A stretch of 52,948 nucleotides of DNA, taken from IMG/VR virus record IMGVR_UViG_3300020171_000037, positions 1 to 52,948 of that record; one strand, given 5' to 3'. The position numbers and the translations under genes are program-made. Shown one piece after another: positions 1 through 17,191 of this stretch. This DNA is from a virus (lineage: Duplodnaviria > Caudoviricetes). The stretch's first letter is position 1. Every line of letters begins with the position of its first letter. The notes beneath the pieces were generated by a model. It was not told the DNA's origin. It did no database searches and saw nothing but the letters and a program-made list of their open reading frames with translations.

Positions 1-44
1 ATGTAACCTTGTGACCTCAATAAAAAAAAAGTGTGGGTTTTGAA

Positions 45-175
45 ATAACATTTGTTATAAAAAGTTAATACACTAAGTAAAAATGAAAACGAATAATTTT
101 AATTTAACGTATTGATATTCAATTGATATAACATGTTATATTTTTGTTATAAAAAAACAGTAAATTTGTTATAAA
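45..175. repeat. Cluster of ATAACA/TGTTAT motifs upstream of terS (candidate cos/terminase-binding or operator region)
   Basis: TTTGTTATAAA at 51-61, 143-153 and 165-175; perfect palindrome ATATAACATGTTATAT at 126-141. Function is inferred from position only. Confidence 0.4.
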
Positions 176-177
176 TT

Positions 178-321
178 ATGAAAAAATACAGAATTACATT
201 AGATTCGAGTTATCTATTCCAGGAACAAGTGATTGAAGCTGAAAACATACTTCATTTACTGAGTTTAATTTGCAATGCATACAATTTAGATAGGATTACT
301 AAAATAGAACTTATTGATTAA
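178..321 (+). CDS. Small hypothetical protein (47 aa)
   Basis: ATG..TAA ORF read by eye, below the ORF track cutoff. Confidence 0.35.
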   Translation: MKKYRITLDSSYLFQEQVIEAENILHLLSLICNAYNLDRITKIELID

Positions 322-351
322 GTAATACCTTTTACAACTAAACGAAAAACA

Positions 352-921
352 ATGGCATTACTAACGCGAAAAGAATTTGCAAAGCTGATTGACAAAGATC
401 CTTTATATCTAGGTGTTTATATTAGCCGTAAAAAGTTAATTATTGAAAACAAGAAACTCGATACTAACAATATTATTAACAAAGAGTTCATTAATAAGCA
501 TTCATCAATAAAAGAGTTTAAAGAATCAGAACAGAAACAAGAACAACAAACTGCAGGTAATGAAGTGAATATAGGCAATATTGACTATGTAGTAAAGCAA
601 CATTCTTTAAAATTAAATTCGATTAAGTTAAAAAAAGAACAACTCGAAATCGAAAAGAAACAAGCTAAGGTAATGCCAGTTGATTTTACAATTGAAATAT
701 TCAATAATTACATGAAGGGTAATATTAACGGTTTAATTAACGATGGGTTTTCGATAATAGATGAACTAATTGAAGAAATGAATGGTAGTTTTGAGCTTAA
801 ATTAAAATATAAGAAAGCATTAAAAGGAAAATTCAATGAAACAATTAGGATAAACCACGAATCAATTTCGAAAAGCATCATTGAAAAGGCTAATGAATAT
901 GCATTACAAAGGAATTGGTAA
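352..921 (+). CDS. Probable terminase small subunit
   Basis: N-terminal HTH-like segment (LLTRKEFAKLI), central coiled coil, typical size; would abut the recombinase-terL block if the cassette array were removed. Confidence 0.6.
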   Translation: MALLTRKEFAKLIDKDPLYLGVYISRKKLIIENKKLDTNNIINKEFINKHSSIKEFKESEQKQEQQTAGNEVNIGNIDYVVKQHSLKLNSIKLKKEQLEIEKKQAKVMPVDFTIEIFNNYMKGNINGLINDGFSIIDELIEEMNGSFELKLKYKKALKGKFNETIRINHESISKSIIEKANEYALQRNW

Positions 922-939
922 TCTCTTTTTTGGCATTGC

Positions 940-1071
940 GTACAACGTTTGGTATATGACCAGTAGCGGATTAAATAGTAATAACCTATCAAATTAGTAG
1001 AATGAATATAGATACAACAGAAACTTCGCAAACCACCGCCCCCGCTATTGGTTATATACCGCGTGTTACCT
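940..1071 (+). repeat. attC-like site A
   Basis: GTACAAC 940-946; arms GGTATATGACCAGTAGCGG 951-969 / CCGCTATTGGTTATATACC 1042-1060; GTTACCT 1065-1071. Confidence 0.88.
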
Positions 1072-1680
1072 GCCGTTTTTCGTGTTTTAAATCTTTGCGC
1101 TGGTATTGGCGGAAACCGTAAAAACTGGAAAGATTGCCAAGTTACAGCCGTTGAAAAAGACCCTAAAATAGCAGCACTTTATAAAAAACTTTATCCTGAT
1201 GATACTGTAATAGTTGGTGATGCTTACGAATACTTAAAAGAAAACTTTGAAAACTTTGATTTTGTTTGGATTTCTCCACCATGCCAAAAGCATAGTAAAA
1301 TGATGAAATTTACAAGGCATAAAGTAGCCGATTACCCAGACTTTAAACTTTATGAAGTGATTGTGTTTTTAGACAACTTTTTTAAAGGGAAATGGGTTGT
1401 TGAAAACGTGAAACCTTATTACAAACCATTGATTGAACCGACAGCCGAAATTGGAAGACATTTATTTTGGGCAAACTTTAAGATTGACCAGGTAAAAGTT
1501 GAACAGCCTAAAAACTTTATAAACAAGGCTAATATGGAAGGTAAAAAGGCAATGATGGACTGGTTGGGCATTCACTTTGAAGAAACAATTTATTATGGTA
1601 AAAATCATTGCCCTGTTCAAATTTTAAGGAATTGCGTTCATCCAATAGTTGGTGAGGCTATTTTCTTAAATGGCAGGTAA
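1048..1680 (+). CDS. Short C5 cytosine DNA methyltransferase (cassette 1); start uncertain (TTG 1048 or GTG 1063, both within site A)
   Basis: Motif I LNLCAGIGG, catalytic SPPCQ, VVENV, motif X-like RNCV. Confidence 0.8.
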   Translation: MVIYRVLPAVFRVLNLCAGIGGNRKNWKDCQVTAVEKDPKIAALYKKLYPDDTVIVGDAYEYLKENFENFDFVWISPPCQKHSKMMKFTRHKVADYPDFKLYEVIVFLDNFFKGKWVVENVKPYYKPLIEPTAEIGRHLFWANFKIDQVKVEQPKNFINKANMEGKKAMMDWLGIHFEETIYYGKNHCPVQILRNCVHPIVGEAIFLNGR

Positions 1681-1764
1681 CTATTCGTATAAACTGCGTT
1701 GGCAAAGTCCGATGTCAGTTTATAAGTAGCTAAATGCCAAATGCAATTTATACGGGTGTTGTGG
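1675..1764 (+). repeat. attC-like site B
   Basis: AGGTAAC 1675-1681; arms CGTATAAACTGCGTTGGCA / TGCCAAATGCAATTTATACG; GTTGTGG 1758-1764. Confidence 0.85.
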
Positions 1765-1795
1765 TGCGTTTTTAAACATTTAATAAATAAATAAA

Positions 1796-2071
1796 ATGGG
1801 AATAAAGAAAATAGCAAGACCTATTAACTACGCAAAAAATTATTTTATTGAGTGGTTAAAAGAAAATGAAGCCTATAATATTGATGTATATGATGGGATT
1901 GATGAAAATGGTGAGTGGGATTATTACAGAACTGTAAGTGGATTTATAGGTGATTCATTGTACACGGTTTATTTTACGATGTGGCATGGTAAGATAAAAA
2001 TTGATTACTCTGATGATGAAAATAGATATTCTGATATGAGCATTTATGAGTTTATGCAGTTATTAACCTAA
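1796..2071 (+). CDS. Hypothetical protein (cassette 2)
   Basis: 91-aa ORF filling the cassette, A-rich leader, stop overlapping the next site's flank. Confidence 0.75.
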   Translation: MGIKKIARPINYAKNYFIEWLKENEAYNIDVYDGIDENGEWDYYRTVSGFIGDSLYTVYFTMWHGKIKIDYSDDENRYSDMSIYEFMQLLT

Positions 2072-2076
2072 ATGCA

Positions 2077-2167
2077 CTACAACGATGACAATAAACCAAG
2101 TTTGGTAACGAAACCGATTTCGTAACCAAATAGTGTCAAACCAAATAGGGTTTATTTGGGGTTATAC
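2077..2167 (+). repeat. attC-like site C
   Basis: CTACAAC 2077-2083; arms AATAAACCAAGTTTGGT / ACCAAATAGGGTTTATT; GTTATAC 2161-2167. Confidence 0.8.
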
Positions 2168-2203
2168 AATGGCTTTCAAGTAATTAACTCAAATAAAAAT
2201 TAT

Positions 2204-2596
2204 ATGAACAATTTAAACGAATTATCAAAACAGATTTACGAAGGTAATAAACTTCGCGGCTTCGATGTTTCAAAAGAAAATATCGGACAAACATTAATGC
2301 TTATAGTATCAGAACTGTCAGAAGCTTTGGAAGCTGATAGGAAAGCAAAATTTGCGAATATGAAAGTGTTTGAAAGTTGCATGGAAGCTGATGATATTAA
2401 AGAAAGTGATATGGATTATTACATAAAACAATCATTTGAATTTAATATTAAAGACACTTTTCAAGATGAAATTGCAGATACATTAATTCGCCTATTTGAT
2501 TTATGCGGTGGTTTACAAATTGATATTGAAAAGCATATTAAATATAAATTAGATTACAATTCAAAGCGAGAATTTAAACACGGTAAGCGTTATTAA
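2204..2596 (+). CDS. MazG-like nucleotide pyrophosphohydrolase (cassette 3)
   Basis: LMLIVSELSEALEA..DEIADTLIRLFD..KLDYN..R..KHGKRY pattern; ATG at 2204 preferred over TTG at 2156. Confidence 0.8.
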   Translation: MNNLNELSKQIYEGNKLRGFDVSKENIGQTLMLIVSELSEALEADRKAKFANMKVFESCMEADDIKESDMDYYIKQSFEFNIKDTFQDEIADTLIRLFDLCGGLQIDIEKHIKYKLDYNSKREFKHGKRY

Positions 2597-2602
2597 GCTA
2601 TT

Positions 2603-2697
2603 GTATAACGGTGGTTGTATGGTGTCGGTTTGCCTTGCAGAAACTTTCACAATACCGATACATTATCCGGCAAACTGCACTATACAACGTGTTAGCC
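2603..2697 (+). repeat. attC-like site D
   Basis: GTATAAC 2603-2609; arms GTTGTATGGTGTCGGTTTGCC / GGCAAACTGCACTATACAAC; GTTAGCC 2691-2697. Confidence 0.9.
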
Positions 2698-2739
2698 GTT
2701 CGGTTTTTATTTTAGTAATTAACTTTAAAACAATATTTT

Positions 2740-3033
2740 ATGAACGAAAAATTAGAACAGGCAAATAAACTACAAAAACAGATTGAAGAACTGGAAAACT
2801 TTCTTTTCGTAGTTGTAGAATTTGACGAAAAATCAAAAGCAATACCGAGCGTTTGGTGCTCAATGACTAAAACCATTAAAGTTGAATTGTCATTGTTTGG
2901 CTTTAGGGGTTTTGGCTGTGGAAATCATTCGCAAACCGTGGTTATACCTAATTTAATCAGAAATAACCTAATTGATTCCTGTAAAGCAAGGCTTCAGGAA
3001 TTAAAAGATGAACTTGCTACGAAGCTGTCTTAA
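2740..3033 (+). CDS. Hypothetical protein (cassette 4)
   Basis: 97-aa ORF filling the cassette. Confidence 0.75.
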   Translation: MNEKLEQANKLQKQIEELENFLFVVVEFDEKSKAIPSVWCSMTKTIKVELSLFGFRGFGCGNHSQTVVIPNLIRNNLIDSCKARLQELKDELATKLS

Positions 3034-3039
3034 ACTGAC

Positions 3040-3335
3040 GGCTAACGATTGGCGGTATATTGTCGGTTGCCGCTTGAATAACCGACACAGTTGAAACGAG
3101 TATTAACTTAACAATTTACGTGCGATGGATAACTTACAAATTAGAGACCAATTTGATTCTGTAACATTCAGAAACAAAAAAGCTGTTTGCATTTTAGAGG
3201 TGCAAAATGAATATAAAACTTCTGAATTTCGATTGAAAAAAAGTGATGCAATAAGCATAATTGCACATTTGCAGGAGTGGGTAGGCATAAAAGCCGATAC
3301 GAGCAAAAGCAACTGCAATATACCGCGTGTTGTGC
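3040..3335 (+). repeat. attC-like site E with a ~238-nt coding loop
   Basis: GGCTAAC 3040-3046; arms GCGGTATATTGTCGGTTGC 3052-3070 / GCAACTGCAATATACCGC 3309-3326; GTTGTGC 3329-3335. Confidence 0.8.
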
Positions 3336-3448
3336 CCTGTTTACCTAGTTACTCATGCCCCTATTGCAATAGCACGCTTATTAACTACAATAAAGTTGAT
3401 GGTTGGAGTTGTGATAATTGTGACGAAACCTGGTTGAATCCTTCTTAA
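3125..3448 (+). CDS. Hypothetical protein with C-terminal zinc ribbon (cassette 5); N-terminal part encoded inside site E
   Basis: CPYC..CDNC; reads through the right arm and GTT box. Confidence 0.65.
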   Translation: MDNLQIRDQFDSVTFRNKKAVCILEVQNEYKTSEFRLKKSDAISIIAHLQEWVGIKADTSKSNCNIPRVVPCLPSYSCPYCNSTLINYNKVDGWSCDNCDETWLNPS

Positions 3449-3453
3449 ATAGG

Positions 3454-3546
3454 GTACAACGTTGGCGGTATGAACTGACCGCCTATAAGACAGTTCAATA
3501 GTACAAATTATGCTCTCAGGCGGTTTGTTTATACCGTGGGTTGTAG
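3454..3546 (+). repeat. attC-like site F
   Basis: GTACAAC 3454-3460; arms GCGGTATGAACTGACCGCCT / AGGCGGTTTGTTTATACCGT; GTTGTAG 3540-3546. Confidence 0.87.
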
Positions 3547-3563
3547 GGCGTTATTCAATATTT

Positions 3564-3974
3564 ATGACCATAGAAAATATTATTTACGAAACGACAAGAG
3601 AGATTTATAGTATTGAAGATAAGCTTAGAATTGCCACTATATTTTTATTCTGCGAAAAAATGGATTCTAAATTATTTGCTGAATTGCTTTACACTGACAA
3701 CCACGAAAAATTTATTGATAATATAAATTTGGAGTATTCTCATTATGAAGTTGATTTCTCTATTAGATTACAAGATAAAAATGTGAGAAATAGCTTTTAT
3801 AAAACGCTTGAAAAAGCTAAAGAACAATTTGACGACAATGGGTTTTACAAGGCTTTATTTGAGAAAGACGAATTTGCACTTGTAATTTATGAAATAGTAG
3901 GCTACAATTTTGATGCTATACAAATGAAAAAAATTACAAAGAATATAGCCGTTCAGTTGCAGCTCGCTCTCTAA
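3564..3974 (+). CDS. Hypothetical protein (cassette 6)
   Basis: ATG at 3564; the frame is also open from ATG 3510 within site F. Confidence 0.75.
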   Translation: MTIENIIYETTREIYSIEDKLRIATIFLFCEKMDSKLFAELLYTDNHEKFIDNINLEYSHYEVDFSIRLQDKNVRNSFYKTLEKAKEQFDDNGFYKALFEKDEFALVIYEIVGYNFDAIQMKKITKNIAVQLQLAL

Positions 3975-3978
3975 TGCC

Positions 3979-4041
3979 CTACAACGAATTGGTGTATGCG
4001 GAGGCTGAGGCACGAAGCTTACGTATGACACCGTGTTATAC
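3979..4041 (+). repeat. attC-like site G (shortest, 63 bp)
   Basis: CTACAAC 3979-3985; arms GGTGTATGCG / CGTATGACACC; GTTATAC 4035-4041. Confidence 0.8.
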
Positions 4042-4146
4042 ACTGGCGTTAACCACTTACCTGCAATTGAAACACGGACGTAATAATTATTTTTTTAGGG
4101 AGGGTATTTTTCTTTAATATTTCTTGTGTATATGAAATATACAATA

Positions 4147-4154
4147 TATCTTTG
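4147..4154 (+). promoter_or_regulatory. Bacteroidota-type -7 promoter box inside cassette 7
   Basis: TATCTTTG matches TAnnTTTG, ~40 nt upstream of ATG 4193. Confidence 0.55.
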
Positions 4155-4192
4155 TTGTAAGAAATTTAATTAGAAACTAAAAACATACGATT

Positions 4193-4468
4193 ATGACTAA
4201 TCAAATTATTTTTAAAAAAGGACAAAAGGTAACAATTACCAACGGAATGAATGCTTCTGATTTTAACATGAACCAAACTTGGAGCATTATGAGTGCCTAC
4301 AATGTTGAAGAATGGTTTAAAAAGGAATTTACAATTGAAGGTACAGTAAAGTTAATAACATTTACTCATTCGCCAGAAGTGTATGGAGCTTATCTATTAC
4401 AACATAATGGCGTTAATGTTGGGTATATTTACAATACAGGAATTAAAGCTATTAAAGATGAAGCGTAA
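4193..4468 (+). CDS. Hypothetical protein (cassette 7, gene 1)
   Basis: 91-aa ORF. Confidence 0.7.
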   Translation: MTNQIIFKKGQKVTITNGMNASDFNMNQTWSIMSAYNVEEWFKKEFTIEGTVKLITFTHSPEVYGAYLLQHNGVNVGYIYNTGIKAIKDEA

Positions 4469-4619
4469 AAACTTAGACTTAACAGAGAATTGCATAAAAG
4501 AAATTGCAAAAGAGGCTATTGATAAAGGCACAGATTTTAAAAATTTAGCTCAGGATATATTAGAAGTACATGCCAAAACCTTAATTGCCGATAGGCAAAA
4601 GAGCGAGGGCAAAAAATAA
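4458..4619 (+). CDS. Small putative ribbon-helix-helix DNA-binding protein (cassette 7, gene 2)
   Basis: MKRKNLDLTENCIKEIAKEA..GTDFKNLAQDILE strand-helix-helix pattern; ATG at 4458. Confidence 0.55.
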   Translation: MKRKNLDLTENCIKEIAKEAIDKGTDFKNLAQDILEVHAKTLIADRQKSEGKK

Positions 4620-4673
4620 TTATGGATAGTTTACACAGGCATTGATTAAGTGAGCTGAGGTTCTTACGCTTGT

Positions 4674-4769
4674 GTATAACGGCTGGCGGTATGGTGTCGG
4701 TTTGCCTTGCAGACTTTTTCAACCTATCACAGACCTTAATGGCAAACTGCACTATACCGCATGTTGTGT
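4674..4769 (+). repeat. attC-like site H
   Basis: GTATAAC 4674-4680; arms GCGGTATGGTGTCGGTTTGCC / GGCAAACTGCACTATACCGC; GTTGTGT 4763-4769; arms nearly identical to site D. Confidence 0.9.
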
Positions 4770-4838
4770 GTCTGGTGCGGTCAAATTGCGAAACAGTTGA
4801 TTAAATGAACAGATGTAATAATTAAATATTTTTTAGGG

Positions 4839-5060
4839 ATGGCATTTTTTGATTTAAACACAATGAGGGAACAGGATGCAGTTATGCAATGCCCATACTG
4901 TTTTGAAGATTTAACTGAAAAAGATATAATTGGTGAAACAGTATATGATGTTGTAAGAATAGGACATAACATTGGTGGAGATGCAACAGTTTTTGAATGT
5001 CCGAAATGCTTTGAAAAATCATTTATTCATAAAGAAAGTTTGAAATGGAAAATACAATAA
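4839..5060 (+). CDS. Small zinc-finger protein (cassette 8, gene 1)
   Basis: CPYC..CPKC. Confidence 0.7.
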   Translation: MAFFDLNTMREQDAVMQCPYCFEDLTEKDIIGETVYDVVRIGHNIGGDATVFECPKCFEKSFIHKESLKWKIQ

Positions 5061-5275
5061 ACTTTGAAGGTAAAGAAATAAAATGGGAATATACTATCTG
5101 CCCATGCTTGCAATGCCCAATTTATCCAACAAAAAAGAAATGGGAAGAAGAAGCAGAAAAAGACGTAAGAAAGGATAAGTGCTATACTTCAAGATGCACT
5201 TATTCAAAAAATCTTGCAGCGAGTATTGCTTGGGAAATACATGATTTACGTTTTGGTTGGGAGGAAAATATTTAA
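5045..5275 (+). CDS. Small Cys-containing hypothetical protein (cassette 8, gene 2)
   Basis: 76-aa ORF overlapping the previous gene's end. Confidence 0.6.
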   Translation: MENTINFEGKEIKWEYTICPCLQCPIYPTKKKWEEEAEKDVRKDKCYTSRCTYSKNLAASIAWEIHDLRFGWEENI

Positions 5276-5327
5276 TTATGGTCAAGTTCCTACAAATGTT
5301 CATTAAATGCACGAATGTAGCACTTGC

Positions 5328-5458
5328 ACACAACGTATGGTGCTATGAGCAGTAGCGGAATTTAAAAAACTAAACTTGAAAATTATGACAGAATTAAATA
5401 ATATACCTGAACTTGAAGCAAACACGAACACCGCTATTGATTATAGCACGTGTTACAG
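5328..5458 (+). repeat. attC-like site I
   Basis: ACACAAC 5328-5334; arms GTGCTATGAGCAGTAGCGG / CCGCTATTGATTATAGCAC; GTTACAG 5452-5458. Confidence 0.9.
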
Positions 5459-6287
5459 GCAGTACGGTATTAATGTACTGTCTCTATTCGATGGAATGTC
5501 TTGTGGTAGAATTGCTTTAGAACGAGCAGGAAATAAAGTAAACAACTACTTTGCTTCTGAAATAGATGAAAAAGCAATTTACATAACGCAAAAAAACTAC
5601 CCAAACACAAAACAACTTGGAAGTGTTACAGAAATTAAAGGTACGGATTTACCGCAAATTGACCTATTAATAGGAGGGTCTCCCTGCCAAAGTTTTAGTT
5701 CATTTGGTAACGGAAAGGGTTTTGATGGTAAAAGTGGATTATTCTGGGAATTTGTAAGGATTTTGAATGAAGTAAAACCAACATTCTTTTTACTTGAAAA
5801 TGTTGTGATGAAAAAAGAATGGGAAGATATTATTACAGATGCACTTGGAGTAGAACCTATACGCATTAACTCAAATCTATTTTCTGCTCATAACAGACCG
5901 AGAATATATTGGACCAACATACCAATAAATGAATTGCCAAAGGAAAACAAAACAACTGTTTATGATATTTTAGAAACACCAAGCTTTCATAATAACTACC
6001 CTAAATGGTTGTTGGGTAAATTTGGAAATAAAACGAGATTAGAACAGTTGTGGTATGCTGATGGGAAAGCAAGTTGTTTAACTTCAAATATGCACAAAGG
6101 ACAAAAATCTACATTTACAAAAGACAGGAACGAAAATATACATAGACTTACTGTTATAGAATGTGAGAGATTACAAACTGTACCTGACAATTATACAGAA
6201 GGTGTTTCAAACACAGATAGGTATAAAATGTTAGGGAATGGCTGGACTGTTTCTGTGATTGCTCACATTTTCGGAGGACTAAAGTAG
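5385..6287 (+). CDS. C5 cytosine DNA methyltransferase (cassette 9); starts in the loop of site I
   Basis: VLSLFDG, GGSPCQ, LLENV, ERLQT, LGNGW motifs. Confidence 0.92.
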   Translation: MTELNNIPELEANTNTAIDYSTCYRQYGINVLSLFDGMSCGRIALERAGNKVNNYFASEIDEKAIYITQKNYPNTKQLGSVTEIKGTDLPQIDLLIGGSPCQSFSSFGNGKGFDGKSGLFWEFVRILNEVKPTFFLLENVVMKKEWEDIITDALGVEPIRINSNLFSAHNRPRIYWTNIPINELPKENKTTVYDILETPSFHNNYPKWLLGKFGNKTRLEQLWYADGKASCLTSNMHKGQKSTFTKDRNENIHRLTVIECERLQTVPDNYTEGVSNTDRYKMLGNGWTVSVIAHIFGGLK

Positions 6288-6293
6288 TATTGC

Positions 6294-6422
6294 CTGTAAC
6301 GTTGAAGCTATGACCAGTAAAGGATTACGGAGCGATAAACTGTCAACTGATACCAAGCTGGATGCGAGCTATAACGTTTGAATAACCGCCGAAACCTTTA
6401 TTGGTTATAGGTTGTGTTACCT
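6294..6422 (+). repeat. attC-like site J
   Basis: CTGTAAC 6294-6300; arms CTATGACCAGTAAAGG / CCTTTATTGGTTATAG; GTTACCT 6416-6422. Confidence 0.88.
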
Positions 6423-6465
6423 GCTGGTGTTTGTACTAATTTATTAATATTCTTAATTTTACGAT

Positions 6466-7644
6466 ATGAAAACGATTAAAAGGAACAACGGAAACGACAT
6501 TAAAATTTATGCAACTACTTTAGAAGATGTTGCATTTGAACAAATTAAAGAACTTGGCGAATTTGAACCATACCAAGATTCTAAAATTAGGATTATGCCC
6601 GATTGCCACGCTGGTGCAGGTTGCACCATTGGAACTACAATGGAAATTAAAGACAAAATTACACCTAATTTAGTGGGAGTAGATATTGGTTGCGGAATGC
6701 TTACGGTTAAACTAAAAGAAACCGATATTGATTTACAAAAGTTAGATGCTGTTATTAATGAATTTGTACCAAATGGATTTAATACACATACTGAACCTAA
6801 AGCAGAATTTGAGTTTGATAAATTGCTTGCTAAAAACCTAAACGTTGGACGTGCTAAATTATCAATTGGCTCTTTGGGTGGCGGAAACCATTTTATTGAA
6901 GTTGGTAAAAACTCAAAAGGTGAGTTATTTTTGGTTATACATTCAGGTTCTCGAAATATTGGTGGACAAGTTGCAAAATATTACCAAGATATTGCAATTG
7001 AAAACTTAACGGATAACTCTAAAGAACGTGAAGAATTGATTGAGCGTTTGAAAAAAGAAGGTAAGCAAAATGAGATTGGCGAAGAGTTGAAAAAACTTAA
7101 AAAACCAATTATAAACAAAGATTTGGCTTACCTAACTGGTACTGACTTTGATAATTATATGCACGATATGGAATTGATGCAGAAATTTGCTGTATTAAAC
7201 CGTAGAACTATGGCAAATATTGTATTAGAAAAGGCTCAATTAACCGAAGCCGAAGCATTTGAAACAATACATAATTACATTGATTTTAAACGTATGATTT
7301 TGCGAAAAGGTGCTGTTTCTGCTGAAAATGGAGAAACCTTACTTATTCCAATTAATATGCGTGACGGGTCAATTATTGCCAAAGGTAAGGGGAATGAAGA
7401 TTGGAACTACTCCGCACCACATGGAGCAGGGCGTTTGATGGGTAGAAATGAAGCACATAAAAAATTGAACTTTGATGAATTTAAAGAACAAATGAAAGAT
7501 GTTTATTCAACTTCTGTTTTAACCGAAACACTGGACGAAGCTCCAAACGCCTACAAGTCAATGAATGAAATTATCGAAGCAATTGGAGAAACTGTTGAAA
7601 TTGTAGATATTATCAAACCTATCTATAATTTCAAAGCTCATTAA
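6466..7644 (+). CDS. rtcB: RtcB-family RNA ligase (cassette 10)
   Basis: MPDCHAG, VGVDIGCG, GSLGGGNHFIE, IHSGSR, HNY..RKGA, SAPHGAGR, DEAP.AYK motifs. Confidence 0.95.
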   Translation: MKTIKRNNGNDIKIYATTLEDVAFEQIKELGEFEPYQDSKIRIMPDCHAGAGCTIGTTMEIKDKITPNLVGVDIGCGMLTVKLKETDIDLQKLDAVINEFVPNGFNTHTEPKAEFEFDKLLAKNLNVGRAKLSIGSLGGGNHFIEVGKNSKGELFLVIHSGSRNIGGQVAKYYQDIAIENLTDNSKEREELIERLKKEGKQNEIGEELKKLKKPIINKDLAYLTGTDFDNYMHDMELMQKFAVLNRRTMANIVLEKAQLTEAEAFETIHNYIDFKRMILRKGAVSAENGETLLIPINMRDGSIIAKGKGNEDWNYSAPHGAGRLMGRNEAHKKLNFDEFKEQMKDVYSTSVLTETLDEAPNAYKSMNEIIEAIGETVEIVDIIKPIYNFKAH

Positions 7645-7667
7645 ATGCAGTGCAGTTTCTTACACTT

Positions 7668-7725
7668 GCAGGTAACTATAATTAAAAGTAATTGTTTTAA
7701 ATACTTAATATAAAACTACTTACAA
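7668..7725. other. Terminal half-site, candidate attI-like primary site
   Basis: GCAGGTAAC box not followed by a clear attC-like arm pair and GTT box; AT-rich spacer up to the recombinase ATG. Confidence 0.55.
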
Positions 7726-8541
7726 ATGGAATTGTCAGAAATAAAAAAGATTTATGTCAAAGAAATGAATCTTAAAACTAGGTCAAAACAAACTATTGAT
7801 CAGTATATGTCATGTGTAAATAAATTCACTAATGAAAATAGTAGAATTTACAGAATGACAAAAGATGAAATCAAAAACTACATGTCAGAATTTCGGTGTA
7901 GATATTCTGATTATTATTTCAATGTAATGGGTTCAGCTTTGAAAGTGCTTTATGAAAAAGTATTGAATCAAAATGAAAAAATGAAATGGTTTGTTCCTGT
8001 AAAAACAGAAATGAAATATCATAACATAATTTCAAATGATGAATTTATAAAAATGATGAAAAAAGCTAATAACATTAAACATAAATTCATAATCATTTTA
8101 TTGTATTCAACTGGAATTCGAGAAACTGAATTTATAAACATAAAGCTTGCTGACATTAATTATGAAGACAATTCCATTTTCATTAAAACTTTAAAAAACG
8201 GTAAAAATAGACATGTATCATTAAGACCACTTTGCAAAAAATATTTACAGGCTTATTTAAAACAATGGAATCCTATTGAATATTTACTAAACGGTCAAAC
8301 TGTTGGTAGTAAATATACCTCATCAAGTATGTTAAAAGTGATTAAAAATGTTTCTGATAATAAATTTACAGTTCATGATTTCAGGCACACCTTTAGTACT
8401 TTGACAATCGAACATGAAAACGTGTTTAGAACAAAAGAAATTTTAGGACACAAAAGCCTTAATAGTACGCTTCATTATTATCATATTCCTAAAAACCAAT
8501 TAAGTTCAATGTATAATCCACTTGACAGTATCGCAGTATGA
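7726..8541 (+). CDS. Tyrosine recombinase, putative cassette integrase
   Basis: LYSTGIR(R), KNGKNR(K), HDFRH, LGHKS, TLHYYH(Y), C-terminal NPLD resembling the SPLD tail of integron-type integrases; stop overlaps the terL start (ATGA). Confidence 0.92.
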   Translation: MELSEIKKIYVKEMNLKTRSKQTIDQYMSCVNKFTNENSRIYRMTKDEIKNYMSEFRCRYSDYYFNVMGSALKVLYEKVLNQNEKMKWFVPVKTEMKYHNIISNDEFIKMMKKANNIKHKFIIILLYSTGIRETEFINIKLADINYEDNSIFIKTLKNGKNRHVSLRPLCKKYLQAYLKQWNPIEYLLNGQTVGSKYTSSSMLKVIKNVSDNKFTVHDFRHTFSTLTIEHENVFRTKEILGHKSLNSTLHYYHIPKNQLSSMYNPLDSIAV

Positions 8542-10649
8542 GCCAATTAGAAATAACAGTAAAAAAAATACTCGATTCATTGAATGTAATTTCAGATGAT
8601 TTGAACCCAGTCGAATGGATACCAAAACATAGAACTATTCAACCTTATGTATCAATTAACATGTCGGGCAAATTTGATTGGTCAAATACACCATACATGA
8701 AAGAAATTACAAACCATTTAGATCAATATAGCCCTACTCAATATATTGCATTAATGAAGGGGGTTCGAGTTGGTGGAACATTCGCATTAGTTCATAATGG
8801 AGTGCCATATATAATGAGCGAGAGACCTGCAAATATTATGCTAATTTCAGCTAATAAAGAACTGGCACGAAAAACAATGCAGGGAGTTGACCACGGCATT
8901 GACGGTTGTAAGATTCGGCACTTAATGACTAAAAGTTCGGGCGTAAAAAGTAATTCGAGTGGTGACACAATGGAATCAAAAAGCTTTGCAGGTGGTTATG
9001 AGCTTTTCAATTTCGGTGGGCAATCAATTGACAATATGAGACAAGTTACAGCCTCAATAATAATTGCAGACGAAATAGATGCCATTAAAGAGAAATCTAA
9101 AGAGGGTGGTAGTTTTATTAAACTAATGGGCGACCGGGCAAAAGATGCAGGGCTTTTAAAGAAAATTATTTATTTAAGTTCGCCGCGGTTGTTAGATTCG
9201 AGTTTGATTTATGAATTATTTTTGGAAGGTGACCAAAGAGTGTATTATGTACCATGCCCGAAATGTGGCGAATATATTGAGCTGGTTTGGAATGAACGGA
9301 ACGAAAACAATACAAGATATGGGATTATTTTTGATGTAAAGAATAGCGAAGTAATTAAAAATAGCGTTCGTTATCGGTGTGGAAAATGTGAGAATGAATT
9401 TGCCGAAACAAAACAATTAAAAAAAGACATGCTAAATGCAGGGTATTGGAAACCCACAATTGAACGCGAAAATAAAACCTTTGTGAGTTATAGACTTTCA
9501 GCATTATATGCCCCTCCGACAATGGACAATTGGTATGATTTCGCTATTGAATATCAGAAAGCATTTCCGAGAGGTGGAATTAAAGACGATTCGCGTTATC
9601 AAAGTTTTGTCAACTCTATTTTAGGCATGCCGTTTAAACCTGAAGGTATTACTTTAAAATCAACTCGATTACAGGAAAACAGGCGCGAATATAAAATAGG
9701 TGAATGCCCGTTTGAATTGTCTAAAAAAGACGGTAACGGCGAAATAATTATTATTTCAATGGCATGTGACTTGAATGGATGGGAAGATGACGGGCGTATT
9801 GATTATGAAATAGTGGCAAAATCTGAAAAGGGCGCAACATATTCCATTGATGCAGGTTCATTTGGAACGTTTATTCCTAAAGTTGAAAAAACAGCATTGG
9901 AGCGCGAGGGGGTTAATGTAGCAAAAGAGGATAGCGAACGGATAAAATACACCTACAAACTTGGAGTTGAAAATAGCATTTGGAAACAATTTGAAGAAAA
10001 GATTGCTTTGACTTACGGAAAATCAGAAAGAAAACTAACTATTATAACAATTGACGTTGGGGTTTATAAAGATTTAGCAATATCGTTTGTGAAACGAATT
10101 AAAAACATGGGTTATACTGTTATTCCAATTATGGGAGCCGATGAAGAAATATTCACACAACAAAATAAAACCGAAACAGGCTCAATTTATCAGATTGCTA
10201 AAGTAGGTGACATTTATTTATTGAATGTAAATGTTATAAAAGATAAACTTTCAAAGTATATTAATTCAGAAAGCTACATTGATGAAGCAGGGCAAATGCA
10301 GCAACCGCCAAACTTTATGAATTTTCCTGAATACGATTCAAAGCAAAACAAATACACCTATCGAAATTACTTTGCTCATTACGAAGCGGAGCATAAACTT
10401 GTTAAAAAAACAGAGGGCGGAATTGATAGGTATTTGTGGGAAAAGAAACGCCCTGGTATTCAAAACCACTTTTGGGATGTTAGGATTTACAATGAGTTTA
10501 GCGCAATATTTATGACCGATTTGATTTGCTCAAACTCGAACCCATACAAAGCGCGAAATTACAAAACCCAAAAGATAACAGCCAATTGGGAAAATGCAGC
10601 TAGGTTAATTAAAGAGGCTAGTATTGAAAATAATGTACCTTTGAGTTAG
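8538..10649 (+). CDS. terL: Terminase large subunit, lambda GpA family
   Basis: MKGVRVGGT Walker A variant, IIADEID Walker B, SSP, GDQRVYYVPCPKCG, NHFWD. Confidence 0.93.
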   Translation: MSQLEITVKKILDSLNVISDDLNPVEWIPKHRTIQPYVSINMSGKFDWSNTPYMKEITNHLDQYSPTQYIALMKGVRVGGTFALVHNGVPYIMSERPANIMLISANKELARKTMQGVDHGIDGCKIRHLMTKSSGVKSNSSGDTMESKSFAGGYELFNFGGQSIDNMRQVTASIIIADEIDAIKEKSKEGGSFIKLMGDRAKDAGLLKKIIYLSSPRLLDSSLIYELFLEGDQRVYYVPCPKCGEYIELVWNERNENNTRYGIIFDVKNSEVIKNSVRYRCGKCENEFAETKQLKKDMLNAGYWKPTIERENKTFVSYRLSALYAPPTMDNWYDFAIEYQKAFPRGGIKDDSRYQSFVNSILGMPFKPEGITLKSTRLQENRREYKIGECPFELSKKDGNGEIIIISMACDLNGWEDDGRIDYEIVAKSEKGATYSIDAGSFGTFIPKVEKTALEREGVNVAKEDSERIKYTYKLGVENSIWKQFEEKIALTYGKSERKLTIITIDVGVYKDLAISFVKRIKNMGYTVIPIMGADEEIFTQQNKTETGSIYQIAKVGDIYLLNVNVIKDKLSKYINSESYIDEAGQMQQPPNFMNFPEYDSKQNKYTYRNYFAHYEAEHKLVKKTEGGIDRYLWEKKRPGIQNHFWDVRIYNEFSAIFMTDLICSNSNPYKARNYKTQKITANWENAARLIKEASIENNVPLS

Positions 10650-10739
10650 ATATGAAATATAATAAAAATAATTTAAAATAATTTGCACAACCAAAAAAGT
10701 ATATGTAATTTAGCAAAAATAATTTAAAGTAAATTGCAT

Positions 10740-11336
10740 ATGAAAACAAATCAAGTATTAAAAAGGAATGATGCATTTGTACAAAGGACTAAGGATGGTT
10801 ATTTTGATTCAAATACATTAATTAATAATTGGAATTTAAACAATCCATCAAAAAGAAAAGAGTTAGCAAAATATAAGGCTAATAATTCAACTAAAGAATA
10901 CATTGAACAATTAATAAAAAGAGGTGTCGAAAATCCTATGTTAATTTCTAATAAAGGTACCTGGATGCACCCTAAGTTATTTATTGACTTTGCTATGTGG
11001 GTTTCAGTTGAATTTAAGGATTTAGTTATTGATTACGTTTTGGATGGGTTAATAAAGAGCCGTAACGATTCAGGCGATTATTATAATCAAATGTGTGCAA
11101 CTATTTTAGAAACCTATGTAAATTATTACCATTGCAAGCCCCCTGCACATATTTATATTGAAGAGGCTAATTTGATTAAATCGTTAGTTACAAATAAGCC
11201 TAGAAATGAAATGAATGAGCAAGAATTAAAACAAATAACTTATTTACAAAAGGTCAATTCTAATTTGCTAAAAAAAGGAATTGGAAAGTCTGCAAGGGTT
11301 AAGAGATTACATGAAGCATCTGAAATAGAAATATAA
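10740..11336 (+). CDS. KilA-N domain DNA-binding protein
   Basis: QRTKDGYF..GTWMHPKLFIDFAMW. Confidence 0.8.
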   Translation: MKTNQVLKRNDAFVQRTKDGYFDSNTLINNWNLNNPSKRKELAKYKANNSTKEYIEQLIKRGVENPMLISNKGTWMHPKLFIDFAMWVSVEFKDLVIDYVLDGLIKSRNDSGDYYNQMCATILETYVNYYHCKPPAHIYIEEANLIKSLVTNKPRNEMNEQELKQITYLQKVNSNLLKKGIGKSARVKRLHEASEIEI

Positions 11337-11372
11337 CTAAAGTAAATAAGTAAACTTAAAAAAATTAGAATT

Positions 11373-11741
11373 ATGATAATAAAAACTAAAGAAGTATATT
11401 ATTGCCAATATTGTAAAAAACATGGGCTTAATAAAAAACAAATGGAATACCACGAAACTATTTGTGTAAAAAATCCAATTAACGATAGGCCTTGTTTTCA
11501 TTGTGAAAATTTAGATAAAAAAGAAACTGAAATATATGGGCAATATTTCGATGGTAGCGAATGGAGTAGAAAACTAGATTTATTATATTGCAAAGTAAAT
11601 GAATGCTTTTTATTTACTCCTAAAAATCAAATAAAAGGTAATCAATTTGATTTAGGTGACGAAAACAATGAACCCATGCCAAAAGAATGTAAAATTTACA
11701 ACTCAATTAAAAAGGTTAATAAATCAATATTTGAATTATAA
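11373..11741 (+). CDS. Cys-rich hypothetical protein
   Basis: CQYC..H..C, CFHC. Confidence 0.7.
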   Translation: MIIKTKEVYYCQYCKKHGLNKKQMEYHETICVKNPINDRPCFHCENLDKKETEIYGQYFDGSEWSRKLDLLYCKVNECFLFTPKNQIKGNQFDLGDENNEPMPKECKIYNSIKKVNKSIFEL

Positions 11742-11867
11742 TTCATATATTTACACTTCGATTTAGTATTTAGACTAAAAAATAGTAACAATTAAAACTT
11801 ACGATTATGAAACATTAATTAAAATTAGAGTACTACTTGATAAATCAGAAAGCAAATAAATTAAAAT

Positions 11868-11898
11868 AAAAATCCACCCAAATAGAGTGGATTTTTTT
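11868..11898 (+). terminator. Intrinsic terminator
   Basis: AAAATCCAC..GTGGATTTT stem followed by a T run. Confidence 0.65.
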
Positions 11899-11925
11899 AT
11901 TTTTACTACTTATTAATTTTTTTCA

Positions 11926-11933
11926 TAACTTTG
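11926..11933 (+). promoter_or_regulatory. -7 promoter box upstream of head genes
   Basis: TAACTTTG, after the terminator and before ORF 11950. Confidence 0.5.
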
Positions 11934-11949
11934 ATAAAAATTTGAATGC

Positions 11950-12195
11950 ATGAATATTACAGATTTAAAAGCCGAATATGAGATACTTAAGCTACAATTA
12001 GCCGATGTAAACACTCAAATCACAGCAATTTTAAAGAAAAATAAAAAATACACTTATTCAAACATTGAAAGCTCGCATTCTGCTGAAACCCACTCACTTA
12101 CAGACTTAATTTCACTTAAAAAATCTATAAAAGAAGAAATGAGTATAATTGAAAACCAGTTAGGCAGCTCTTTTGTTAAATTAAAAAACTACTAA
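11950..12195 (+). CDS. Probable gpW-like head-tail joining protein
   Basis: Helix-hairpin-helix 81-aa protein between terL and portal, matching lambda gene order. Confidence 0.6.
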   Translation: MNITDLKAEYEILKLQLADVNTQITAILKKNKKYTYSNIESSHSAETHSLTDLISLKKSIKEEMSIIENQLGSSFVKLKNY

Positions 12196-12196
12196 C

Positions 12197-13864
12197 ATGT
12201 TTGGAATCAATGAATTAAAGTCTAAAGTTAATGAATTAAGCAAAATAAATGCTGAATTAATCGAAAAAACAACGGCTTTAAATGAATCGAATCATAAAAT
12301 GAACGCAATAGTAGCAGGTTCATTATTCAGTTACGAAACATTAACAGGTGAAACCAACGTTGGGGACTTGCCAGAGGTTAAAGAGTTCATTATTTGGTAC
12401 GAAAAGTTTAGACAAAGGAGTTGGTCATATATTTATAAAAACCATTTAGCTAATTTAATAGTAACAAAGCGGGTTAATTGGTTAATCGGTTCTGGTTTGC
12501 TTTTTAATTCGCGCCCCTCAGATACTCCATTTACAGATTTTTACGGGGCGGCAAATGGTAAAATAAAACACCGTGAATTTATTCAAAAACTAGAATACCA
12601 ATTTAGAAATTACATAAACACAAAGGCAGTTGACTACTCAAAAAACAACAACTTACATGAACTAGCTAGGCAAATTGATTTCAATGCAAGCGCGGACGGC
12701 GATATTCTAATATTAATGAGGGTTAAAAACGGTTTTCCAAACATTCAAGTAATATCAGGGCAATGTGTTACTAATCCATTTAATTACAGCTTACCAAGTG
12801 GAAATACAATTAATGAGGGTGTTGAAATGAATGGCAAAGGCGAAATAGTTAACTACCATGTTTTAGTTAACAAATCTACCTCAAAAACAGAAATCAAAGC
12901 CATTGAAACCGAAATAAGCTATTATACTGAATCAATTCCAGTTTATTTTAAAGGTACAAACATTCGTCAAGCGTGGTTATATAGGTCAAGCGATTTACAA
13001 AAAGCAGGTGAAACAAGGGCAATGCCTTTATTATCGTATATGTTTGAAACCTTACAACACTTGAATGATTACATTATTGCCAATGCCAAAAATGCTCAAT
13101 TAAAAGCTCAAATGGTAGTAGCGTTTGAAAAGGATGCAGCTTCGACAGGTGAGAAAGTATTTGGTGACGTAAAAATAAACGTAGCGGGTATTAGCGACAA
13201 TGTTAATGAAGAAATTACGGACACTTCGCTACTTTCAGAAACAACCGAAAGAAAACTAAAAGGCAATGGAATTGTAATTGATGCTCCTAAGGGTGTAAAG
13301 GTTAAGCAAGTTAATGATAAAGCTCAAAGTGACCAAGGCGATTATGTAAAAAGCACTTTAACAACTTTGTTAGCCGGAACCATATTCCCTTTAGAGGTTA
13401 CTTTAGGCACTTACAATTCAAACTATACTGCTTCAATGGGTGCCCGTTCTGATGCTCAATATAATTTGGACGTTACAACCGAAATAATCCCATCAAATCA
13501 GCTTTACAAAATGGTTTTAAATATGTTTTTATATCTGCAGGTTCTAAAAGGCGAAATTGATTGTCCACCTTTGAAAAAAGCATATGACAATAACGATATA
13601 ATCACAATTCAAGCTTTGACAAACTCAACATTTGAGGGTACTAAATTAAAACCAATTGACCCTGTTAAATTTATCAAATCATTGAGAATGCAAATACCCG
13701 AAAAGATACGTGAACAAGTGCCACTAAACACAATTGAAAACTTAGTAAATGCTGCAAGCGGTGGCGACTTTGAAAGCGTAAACAATCAAGTTGTAAATGA
13801 AATGGAATTGCTATCAGATAATTTTGAAATCATAATACCTGAAAATGGAAACGTACAAGTGTAA
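12197..13864 (+). CDS. Portal protein, lambda family
   Basis: Size, position, EGVEMNGKGEIVNYHV, GETRAMP, NYTASMG motifs. Confidence 0.85.
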   Translation: MFGINELKSKVNELSKINAELIEKTTALNESNHKMNAIVAGSLFSYETLTGETNVGDLPEVKEFIIWYEKFRQRSWSYIYKNHLANLIVTKRVNWLIGSGLLFNSRPSDTPFTDFYGAANGKIKHREFIQKLEYQFRNYINTKAVDYSKNNNLHELARQIDFNASADGDILILMRVKNGFPNIQVISGQCVTNPFNYSLPSGNTINEGVEMNGKGEIVNYHVLVNKSTSKTEIKAIETEISYYTESIPVYFKGTNIRQAWLYRSSDLQKAGETRAMPLLSYMFETLQHLNDYIIANAKNAQLKAQMVVAFEKDAASTGEKVFGDVKINVAGISDNVNEEITDTSLLSETTERKLKGNGIVIDAPKGVKVKQVNDKAQSDQGDYVKSTLTTLLAGTIFPLEVTLGTYNSNYTASMGARSDAQYNLDVTTEIIPSNQLYKMVLNMFLYLQVLKGEIDCPPLKKAYDNNDIITIQALTNSTFEGTKLKPIDPVKFIKSLRMQIPEKIREQVPLNTIENLVNAASGGDFESVNNQVVNEMELLSDNFEIIIPENGNVQV

Positions 13865-14015
13865 AAATATTAAATGTAGGCAGCCTATTTTATTTGAGGG
13901 TGAGTTTTTAGGCACTATTAAAAAAATTTGCCCTAAATGCAAAGAAATGAATATCTTTGTTGAGCAAAAAAACGTAGTTTTAGATAAATTTTGTAATAAT
14001 AATTTAATTAAGTAA
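13845..14015 (+). CDS. Mu Com-like zinc-finger protein (56 aa)
   Basis: Manual translation METYKCKNIKCRQPILFEGEFLGTIKKICPKCKEMN…; Com-type spacing of two Cys pairs. Confidence 0.65.
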   Translation: METYKCKNIKCRQPILFEGEFLGTIKKICPKCKEMNIFVEQKNVVLDKFCNNNLIK

Positions 14016-14022
14016 TTTTGAA

Positions 14023-14460
14023 ATGATGAAAAAAGTATTATTGATTTTATTTGCGTTTATAGTATTCGCAAATTTAGCCAAAGGGCAACAAGGTAACACT
14101 CAATTTTTTGATACTGTTTCTATAACGGTTTCAGAAAAAACAGTAGTGCCGGTTTATTCATATTCCTATGATGGAATGAAAAACTATGAGGGTGCCGTTG
14201 TTGGTTTTATTTTTAGTGTATCAAATTATACCGATACATTAGCAAGTGTAATTTTAGAAGGTGGTTACAAATTGGCAAGTGGTACTATAACTTATACGCC
14301 TGTTGACACTTTAACCGAACTTGGAGCAACAAAACCATATTGTTTATATCAAACTGAACCCGTATTCCAATATTATAGATTACGAATACCTTTTGTAACC
14401 GGCGACAATTCGACATTGAAAAATATATTATATTTTGAAAAGTTTAAGACTTTAAAATAA
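14023..14460 (+). CDS. Exported protein with signal peptide
   Basis: MMKKVLLILFAFIVFANLAKG-Q signal peptide. Confidence 0.7.
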   Translation: MMKKVLLILFAFIVFANLAKGQQGNTQFFDTVSITVSEKTVVPVYSYSYDGMKNYEGAVVGFIFSVSNYTDTLASVILEGGYKLASGTITYTPVDTLTELGATKPYCLYQTEPVFQYYRLRIPFVTGDNSTLKNILYFEKFKTLK

Positions 14461-14549
14461 TTTTCGCACCCTTTAATTAGGGTTTGGTAGTTTTATGCAG
14501 AGCTAGCCTCTCGATGTTAATCATTGAGAGGCTTTTTTAATTTAATCAT

Positions 14550-15539
14550 ATGGCACGAAAAATAGCAACCGATTTACCTGAATTTATCTTCTCATATACA
14601 ATCAATTCACTTATTGACAAAATAAATGAAACAGACGAAGATTATGAAATATCATGGAATAGCAAAGGCGGTTCGGTTTGGGCGGGTAATCAATTTATAG
14701 ATTTCCTAAACAACGATAAAAAACAAAGTACTGCAAATGTAACAGGCGTTGCAGCCTCAATGGGTGCCGTTATGTTGGCCTTTTTTACCAAAACAAAAGG
14801 CGCAAATCAAGCCGACTTAATGATACATTCGGCGGTGGGCGGCGCAAGTTCAACAATGAAAGCTACTAATGAGTTCCTTTATAAAGCACTATCAAAGAAA
14901 ATAGATTCAAAGAAATTTAAAGAATCGACTGGCAAGGATTTAAAAGAGGTTATGATGGCAAGCGAAGATCAAAGAGTTGACGTTTGGTTTACAGGCAAAC
15001 AGGCAGCTTATTTTGGTTTACTTGACGAATCTTACGACCTGCTTGAAAAGTCAGCTTCAATTGATAACAAAACAGATTTTAAAGAATTAGGTTATGAATT
15101 GCCCGAAAACTTAAAAGAGAAATACGGATTAATTAATATTCACACAAATAAAAATGAAATGGAAATAAAAGATGTAACAGCGAGTATGCTGCTTACAGGT
15201 AACAAAGAGGCATACGACAGCATCTTTGAAGCCGGAAAGCAAGCAGAACAAACGAGAGTTTCCGAAATCATGAAGTACGCACAGTACGACATGAATAAAG
15301 CTAACGAAATCGTTAAAAGTGGTAAGAGTTTAAGTATTGCAGATGTTGAACATTTTATGACTAAAAAGTTTGACACCGCAAAACTTAACGAACTTGAATT
15401 AGGTAGCGAAGACCCAATTACACCCGCAAAACCTATTGTAAACAAAGAAGCAAAAACAGTTGAAGAAAAAGAAAAAGAAGCTGCTTTTGCTGAAATGAAT
15501 GAGGGTATTGGACTTGGTAAAATTTTAACTCAAAAATAA
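14550..15539 (+). CDS. ClpP-like prohead protease fused to a scaffold region
   Basis: NSKGGSV, GVAASMG, LMIH, WFTGKQA; charged C-terminal region. Confidence 0.88.
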   Translation: MARKIATDLPEFIFSYTINSLIDKINETDEDYEISWNSKGGSVWAGNQFIDFLNNDKKQSTANVTGVAASMGAVMLAFFTKTKGANQADLMIHSAVGGASSTMKATNEFLYKALSKKIDSKKFKESTGKDLKEVMMASEDQRVDVWFTGKQAAYFGLLDESYDLLEKSASIDNKTDFKELGYELPENLKEKYGLINIHTNKNEMEIKDVTASMLLTGNKEAYDSIFEAGKQAEQTRVSEIMKYAQYDMNKANEIVKSGKSLSIADVEHFMTKKFDTAKLNELELGSEDPITPAKPIVNKEAKTVEEKEKEAAFAEMNEGIGLGKILTQK

Positions 15540-16024: not shown

Positions 16025-16041
16025 CCCTTAAAAATTAAGAT

Positions 16042-17187: not shown

Positions 17188-17191
17188 TATT

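Follow-up and report, generated by a model that had tools for sequence, protein, structure and literature searches.

What does it mean when the two ends of a gene, rather than the two sides of an intergenic site, are complementary to each other? The question is raised by the linear IMG/VR virus record IMGVR_UViG_3300020171_000037 (52,948 bases, completeness estimate 86%; the whole stretch was analysed and is called the window below). Ten times in succession within its first 7.7 kb, the sequence that starts at a GTT pairs with the one that ends in AAC on the opposite side of that gene. Our answer is that positions 944–8541 probably form an integron-like gene-capture platform of a tailed phage, made up of ten cassettes, an attI-like insertion site and a 271-residue Xer-like recombinase. 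The cassette principle of integrons has been in print since the 1990s; the phage carrier, the different enzyme and the inverted gene orientation are new.

An earlier note on this DNA had listed the pairing flanks gene by gene, and all 20 of the strings that it quoted were located where it had placed them. The GTTs start at positions 1065, 1758, 2161, 2691, 3329, 3540, 4035, 4763, 5452 and 6416, and the AACs at the far ends of the same genes end at 1681, 2083, 2609, 3046, 3460, 3985, 4680, 5334, 6300 and 7676, respectively. For the flank matrix, the 12 bases past each of the ten GTTs were scored against the 12 bases before each of the 11 AACs by an ungapped count of Watson–Crick pairs. Flanks of the same gene form 10, 9, 11, 9, 10, 10, 10, 6, 10 and 10 pairs per 12 (mean 9.5), whereas flanks of the same site form 3.6 on average and the remaining 90 combinations 3.9 (at most 9). 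In every one of the ten rows the same-gene column scores highest, without a tie, and the diagonal sum was reached in none of 100000 permutations. The weakest pair (4763/5334) has only 6 of 12 ungapped matches, but its own flank still gives the best fold once a bulge is allowed. Both the complementarity across each gene and the poor match of the outer flanks within a linear site, as the earlier note had described them, are therefore borne out in ten of ten cases, the all-pairs scoring that it had suggested being dominated by the same-gene diagonal. The observation is confirmed as real and far beyond chance.

Each cassette was also circularised in silico and folded using DNA parameters, with each site given each of the 11 possible left flanks. 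Mean fold energies are −26.4 kcal/mol with the flank of the site's own cassette, −17.5 kcal/mol for the linear hybrid and −17.9 kcal/mol with the other flanks, and in ten of ten sites the own left flank has the lowest energy of the 11. Folded in this way, all ten sites have the architecture of attC, with R and L stems, an unpaired spacer, a variable loop and the two triplets. The R stems are 9–15 base pairs (bp) long; the inner hairpin is laid out as a spacer, semi-conserved GGTATR/YATACC arms and a variable loop, and the loops reach ~240 nucleotides (nt) and contain coding sequence. The folds agree with the view that a cassette has its full hairpin only when circular, the circles themselves being presumed.

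Flank pairing alone is not specific, because a flank-only search with loose thresholds returned 44 matches in the other 44 kb of this A/T-rich phage genome, about one per kb. The site detector consisted of a gapped arm score chained to the flank pairing. With flank pairing and inner hairpin chained, all 13 links in the whole window fall within 946–6416, one of them (2161–4680) being spurious; with a strict threshold, 2083/2161 and 3985/4035 of the window escape detection. Neither a search for inner arms without gaps nor one for inverted repeats in general could separate the sites from the A/T-rich background, and both were dropped.

The pairing of the flanks is symmetric and therefore cannot tell AAC from GTT as the point of crossover, since a circle could open at either. 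According to the earlier note each site is a hybrid produced by crossover at the AAC/GTT triplet. The hybrid nature holds; the crossover is refined to the AAC of the + strand by comparison with relatives, on the strength of the breakpoints between two of them, the junction on the recombinase side, breakpoints in other metagenomes and the positions of the open reading frames (ORFs). The two relatives, L124 and L125, were recovered from different samples. From the recombinase onward they share 99.4% identity over 10.6 kb, while their arrays differ by whole blocks (A-B-C-int and A-C-D-int, respectively). All of the breakpoints lie in 4–9 nt of shared sequence containing AAC, namely GCTAACGGT between blocks and TAAC at the recombinase side, the exact crossover phosphate being beyond the resolution of this comparison. 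Block C, which is found behind either A or B, is a case of the same cassette beside different neighbours, for which the earlier note had proposed a search. Its inner hairpin stays with it in both arrangements, and the end of block A is followed by a different hairpin in L124 and in L125. The mobile unit is thus inner hairpin, GTT, gene and AAC. Block D of L125 lies between block C and the attI-like site. In the window, four ORFs (those of cassettes 1, 5, 6 and 9) have their start within the hairpin ahead of them and run across the GTT, so that the hairpin has to be part of the unit of the downstream gene; no other division fits.

Contigs from landfill, groundwater and manure match single cassettes. 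They were accepted from 88% likeness and derive from complex metagenomes, and only the best-supported rows, 18 of 363 loose ends, are considered here. Seven of these 18 loose ends lie within 3 nt of an AAC junction (at 944, 2606, 4677, 3047, 7676 and, twice, 5335) and one lies at a GTT. Similarity begins at 944 in comparison X3, and the match to cassette 4 runs from 2606 to 3047; further contigs begin to match at 4677, the boundary between cassettes 7 and 8, and the match to cassette 8 ends at 5335 in both X3 and X4. A contig in X4 with the end of the cassette that encodes an RtcB RNA ligase departs from the window exactly behind 7676, without running on into the attI-like block. The parts of the stretch that have no cover in X2 and X7 are not informative. 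The earlier note had named boundaries away from the triplet as a refutation; among the 18 loose ends the foreign contigs lose similarity at AACs, and the note's reading is not refuted by them.

These junctions bear on two other explanations. Modular shuffling by homologous or illegitimate recombination between similar repeats has been proposed for T4-type phages, and here it would act between like intergenic repeats instead of at a specific site. Like inner hairpins do occur, with 82% identity between cassettes 4 and 8 and 75% between cassettes 1 and 9; the latter value is weak evidence of linkage, because the two methyltransferases concerned are only 24% identical. Yet the L124/L125 junctions share only 4–9 nt, or 17 nt with one mismatch, the attI-like site and the cassette ends have only TAAC in common, and shuffling of this kind offers no reason for R arms that pair across each gene. 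We consider it highly improbable. The chance that each gene is an invertible segment, as in an inverton or shufflon, flipped between its inverted repeats by the recombinase is close to negligible. Inverted repeats do flank every gene and a tyrosine recombinase does adjoin the array, but the repeats differ in sequence from gene to gene and every ORF of at least 90 codons in 944–7676 is on the + strand, the strand of the recombinase. Moreover, what separates L124 from L125 is the gain or loss of blocks, and the blastn output contains no match in inverted orientation.

The two strands of the sites are not equivalent. In ten of ten sites the hairpin of the + strand is more stable than that of the − strand (mean −24.7 versus −19.9 kcal/mol), and the outer R stems contain 12 G·T oppositions and no A·C opposition. 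Across 28 cassettes (those of the window and of seven relatives) the core reads GTT-R-N6-G-T, with AAC and GTT invariant in 28 of 28, the triplets being a requirement of the detector. The canonical RYYYAAC/GTTRRRY core is not followed: position 4 is R in all 28, position 5 is divided between Y (17) and R (11), and positions 6 and 7 are mixed. At position 11 of the left arm all 28 cassettes have a T, which stands opposite G in 22. This conserved T·G mismatch is located about one helical turn from the triplet and would be an A·C clash on the other strand. The recombining strand of integrons is the better-folding one and has the cleaved AAC on its 5′ arm (PMC5027507). The + strand here likewise folds better and has the AAC on its 5′ arm.

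The same asymmetry could be read at the level of RNA, with stems that bracket the genes and guide processing, stability or translation, and with DNA recombination as an incidental matter. The genes and the more stable hairpins are all on the + strand and hence in mRNA sense, the 12 G·T oppositions would be G·U in RNA, and start codons lie inside hairpin loops. On the other side, the AAC-exact DNA rearrangements, the conserved junction next to the recombinase and the invariant AAC/GTT would be left unexplained, and a search of positions 1–9000 against Rfam gave no family at E < 0.1. A purely RNA-based account is thus very unlikely; as the + strand is also the coding strand, however, the stems could have a role in RNA alongside recombination.

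The attI-like site (7677–7725, + strand) is an A/T-rich block that starts right behind the last AAC, 49 nt ahead of the ATG of the recombinase gene. In 16 of 16 measurable loci, the recombinases of which are 44–76% identical to that of the window, the junction AAC is located 49–51 nt upstream of the recombinase ATG, with a variable flank to its left and a conserved A/T-rich block to its right (TATAATTAAA in the window). This arrangement corresponds, by analogy, to the layout of an attI site. A scan of viral contigs with a 14-base junction motif was discarded, as it gave chance matches only and the recombinase was encoded in none of the fetched loci.

The recombinase gene (7726–8541, + strand) encodes an Xer-like tyrosine recombinase of 271 residues, the presumed cassette integrase, which matches Pfam Phage_integrase (PF00589, 1.3e-21) and SAM_4. 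A total of 38 related proteins were found, with lengths of ~270 residues and identities of 44–100%. In an alignment of 35 relatives the catalytic residues R132, K157, H217, R220 and Y251 are invariant and H242 is at least 90% conserved. The best NCBIfam model is of the XerA type (XerA_Arch; 124.5 bits, cut-off 220); XerC gives 88.9 bits (cut-off 335) and XerD 73.8 bits (cut-off 330), so that the protein is below the cut-off of each. The nearest solved structures are those of XerA (4a8e, 4.2e-18; 5hxy) and then Vibrio IntI4 (2a3v), with the SPL tail of which the C-terminal NPLD tail of the recombinase aligns. Over nine sources there are 50 hairpin sites with a score of 30 or more in the 79.2 kb on the upstream side of the recombinase and six in 130.4 kb downstream, a density ~14 times higher upstream. 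Relatives of more than 35% identity are encoded by eight viral contigs, whereas a search of 185,579 cellular genomes returned none; together with the lack of any prophage form among the data seen, this argues against a role in lysogeny. These findings tie the enzyme to the array, on which it would be active.

It is unlikely, though less so than the explanations above, that these are true integron-type sites served by another enzyme, such as a host integron integrase or host Xer, while the 271-residue recombinase provides lysogeny or dimer resolution. The recombinase does lack the IntI insert, and attC sites from phages without an integrase were recombined by IntI1 in the laboratory (PMC9892861). 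Polaribacter phage P12002L likewise has similar AAC…GTT sites by its methyltransferase genes and no annotated integrase. Against another enzyme stand the spacing of 49–51 nt between AAC and recombinase start, which is kept in 16 of 16 loci despite divergence to 44% identity, the enrichment of sites upstream of the recombinase, and the absence, already mentioned, of a prophage form and of relatives above 35% identity in the cellular genomes searched.

With an integron-like platform as the preferred interpretation, a mechanism can be proposed. Each cassette would be read on the + strand in the order inner hairpin, GTT, right R arm, gene or genes, left R arm and AAC. A linear site would then be a hybrid, having its 5′ R arm from the upstream cassette and the rest from the downstream cassette. 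Excision of a circle, or folding of the + strand, would bring the R arms of one cassette together as a stem of 9–15 bp stacked on the inner hairpin, and recombination would take place at the AAC on the 5′ arm of this hairpin. Recombination between two sites would excise cassettes, whereas recombination between a site and the attI-like site would insert them next to the recombinase gene. Because the genes are read towards the recombinase and the terminase, each site is upstream of its own gene, the reverse of classical integrons. The adjacent recombinase is presumably the enzyme of the cassettes, its substrate would be folded single-stranded + strand DNA, and circles are the likely intermediates; resolution may need replication, as in integrons. 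A more far-reaching version, towards which we lean slightly, is a self-contained phage integron in which an insert-less Xer-like recombinase recognises folded coding-strand hairpins. In it, the T·G mismatch and not extrahelical bases would mark the strand, and counter-defence genes (methyltransferases, RtcB and MazG) would pass in circular form between phages from several habitats.

Several points weigh against this interpretation. The G·T bias is found on the mRNA-sense strand and would equally suit an RNA structure. Hairpin similarity ends at the GTT as well in three comparisons, which probably reflects conservation of the site, though an occasional crossover at GTT is conceivable. The foreign contigs, as stated above, are matches from 88% likeness upwards in complex metagenomes and represent the best-supported rows only. 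In the closest relative, L003, the detector returned no chained links, although sites are visible by eye, and no whole cassette is common to L003 and the window. The folds, read by eye, contain no consistent pattern of extrahelical bases, with only a tendency for the spacer to be longer on the AAC side. The recombinase scores far under the integron-integrase models (TIGR02249, 82.8 bits with a cut-off of 265; PRK15417, 35.8 bits with a cut-off of 435). It has 41 residues (171–212) where IntI4 (2a3v) has 88 (174–262); the alignment breaks at this point, and the IntI insert is therefore absent. That insertion is called essential for integron function (PMC8138268). Lastly, the circular cassette, the excision product and the activity of the enzyme are deduced and not observed, the other samples having yielded contigs only.

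All of the cassettes are on the + strand and follow one another from the distal AAC junction (944–946), the left end of the array and the boundary between backbone and cassette 1. Cassette 1 (947–1681) has its hairpin at 947–1064, its GTT at 1065 and its AAC at 1679–1681; its ORF (1048–1680), which starts within the hairpin, encodes a short protein like C5 DNA methyltransferases (Pfam DNA_methylase, 3.3e-10; phrog_363). Cassette 2 (1682–2083; hairpin 1682–1757) encodes a 91-residue protein of no family (1796–2071). In cassette 3 (2084–2609; hairpin 2084–2160) the ORF at 2156–2596 encodes a MazG-like pyrophosphatase (phrog_9236 pyrophosphatase, 7.9e-31). Cassette 4 (2610–3046; hairpin 2610–2690) again has an ORF without family (2740–3033, 97 residues). 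Cassette 5 (3047–3460) has a long hairpin (3047–3328), in the loop of which the ORF 3125–3448 starts before crossing the GTT at 3329, and the 154-residue ORF of cassette 6 (3461–3985; ORF 3510–3974) also starts within its hairpin (3461–3539). Cassette 7 (3986–4680) has a short hairpin (3986–4034) and two small ORFs (4193–4468 and 4383–4619). Two small ORFs (4839–5060 and 5045–5275) are likewise present in cassette 8 (4681–5334; hairpin 4681–4762), which has the weakest flank pair. The hairpin loop of cassette 9 (5335–6300; hairpin 5335–5451) holds the ATG (5385) of a C5 DNA methyltransferase (Pfam DNA_methylase, 6.8e-47), the ORF of which extends to 6287. Cassette 10 (6301–7676), nearest to the recombinase, has its hairpin at 6301–6415, an RtcB RNA ligase ORF at 6466–7644 (Pfam RtcB, 4.5e-63) and its AAC at 7674–7676. 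The cargo thus amounts to two C5 DNA methyltransferases, one MazG-like pyrophosphatase, one RtcB RNA ligase and, in the other six cassettes, small proteins without family; a putative role in counter-defence is plausible.

Further features were noted inside single cassettes. The ORF of cassette 5 (3125–3448) and one of L003 (~4490–4800) encode two-part proteins: the N-terminal part is encoded in the site loop, the 3′ arm and the GTT supply a linker, and a 132-nt GTT–AAC segment provides a zinc-ribbon-like CxxC…CxxC tail. Relatives have many short GTT–AAC segments (106–230 nt) between long sites. Just 5′ of the ORF start, a 40-nt leader in the site loop (3089–3128) is 92.7% identical to L003 4450–4490 in otherwise different cassettes, and may be a promoter or a translation signal. 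As a bolder and less likely extension, the site loop and the segment past the GTT could be separate coding modules, so that recombination would also shuffle protein domains. A second, nested pair of inverted repeats is present inside cassette 8 (4818–4832/5265–5279) and cassette 7 (4083–4095/4611–4623). In X3 and X4 the contigs resemble cassette 8 in its outer parts and skip from 4832 to 5264–5265, and in cassette 4 there is a jump from 2711 to ~3024; cassettes 4 and 8 therefore have ends in common with the contigs and different interiors. In a relative (L128, 3894–4080) a hairpin 76% identical to that of cassette 9 keeps the ORF start in its loop; the frame stops just past the GTT, after which the sequence differs, as in a decayed cassette or after an exchange at GTT.

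In its overall plan the locus resembles classical integrons (PMC5027507), where recombination occurs in the AAC of the R box and cassettes circularise. A recombinase gene has an insertion site at its 5′ end, and each cassette of the array has one imperfect hairpin site with R stem, spacer, L stem and variable loop. AAC and GTT are invariant, and the crossover would fall on whichever strand folds more stably, at the AAC of its 5′ arm. Most of the site is located at the attI-distal end of the cassette, the linear sites are hybrids and circles are the presumed intermediates. The differences from the class 1 and Vibrio chromosomal integrons are equally clear. Here, the recombinase has 271 residues and no IntI insert, and its gene is co-directional with the cassettes and not divergent from them. 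The genes are read towards attI, an orientation described as never seen in integrons (PMC5027507), so that the site precedes the gene and the folding strand is the coding strand. The R stems are 9–15 bp and not 7 bp long, the core is GTT-R-N6-G-T and not GTTRRRY, and the conserved T·G mismatch, the coding loops of up to ~240 nt and the phage carrier also set the locus apart.

Clusters of attC sites without an integrase (CALINs) have been reported in phages, including P12002L (Qi et al., 2023; PMC9892861). The likeness lies in attC-type sites by DNA methyltransferase genes, those of P12002L being similar by eye. The difference is that the accessible portion of this source reports no dedicated phage recombinase and reads the clusters as pieces of bacterial integrons, whereas the array here comes with a conserved recombinase and an attI-like site. 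Its total is 17 phages, among which relatives of the present phage family might be found (PMC9892861). In P12002L (L168), short AAC…GTT hairpin sites are located at 29965–30085, 38010–38125 and 38810–38955, between methyltransferase genes; their arms are GTATATA/TATATAC, the pairing of R arms takes place within one site, and the annotation contains no integrase. In another Polaribacter phage, Freya_10, with a recombinase 27% identical to that of the window, no comparable sites were seen by eye in 1–4200. In the records Freya_1 to Freya_10 the integrase is at position 107 of a 43,978-base record and at 4204 of a 48,920-base record, and the region that precedes it therefore varies in length among isolates. 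An uncultured Bacteroidales metagenome-assembled genome (L157, a chromosome-size contig; 9194–17760) encodes a 529-residue protein, the C-terminal part of which is 34% identical to the phage recombinase. At least eight near-identical 114-nt AAC…GTT hairpin sites follow 3′ of this gene with a spacing of 0.5–1.6 kb, which suggests an array of this kind on a chromosome, though one that is laid out differently.

The recombinase itself is closest to XerA and XerC/XerD, which give the best sequence matches and have the same length and the same two-domain layout, but it scores under every curated cut-off, and Xer acts on one short double-stranded dif site and not on arrays of hairpins. In the pdif modules of Acinetobacter plasmids, gene modules are bounded by inverted sites for Xer-type recombinases; these are conserved 28-bp double-stranded XerC/XerD sites used by host enzymes, whereas the arms here differ in every cassette and only the pairing is kept. 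A search of the full-text literature, with subscription journals outside its coverage, turned up only the attC clusters without an integrase in phages (PMC9892861) and no account of an array in a phage that has an insert-less recombinase of its own.

The array is set into the genome of a contractile-tailed phage, as judged from PHROGs matches in the window to the large terminase, portal, head protease, tail sheath and tape measure. The GC content is ~32% and the long ORFs are all on the + strand. Directly to the left of the array is a backbone gene (352–921, + strand, 189 residues; only phrog_5193, unknown function, in PHROGs). Its homologue in L003 (57–340; 66% nucleotide and 53% amino-acid identity) is also directly followed by the first AAC. 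As the array starts directly after this conserved gene, the window contains exactly ten cassettes, from the AAC at 946 to the AAC at 7676. To the right, the large terminase gene (8538–10649, + strand; phrog_15, 8.7e-96) overlaps the stop codon of the recombinase gene. Positions 1–12000 of the window gave no megablast match to cultured phages. In the non-coding stretch ahead of the first gene (40–180), the word TTTGTTATAAA occurs three times, possibly as a promoter or operator repeat.

The textbook case of gene capture in bacteria is the integron, the integrase insert of which is held to be essential for reading the folded attC site. As a practical consequence, the flank rule marks cassette boundaries in such arrays without a model of the site. 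If the interpretation is correct, the IntI insertion would be dispensable for cassette recombination at hairpin sites, the definition of the integron would be widened and a simple enzyme would be at hand for testing how hairpin sites are recognised. The platform would also explain how phages exchange small anti-defence genes, and it may resemble the ancestor of the integron.

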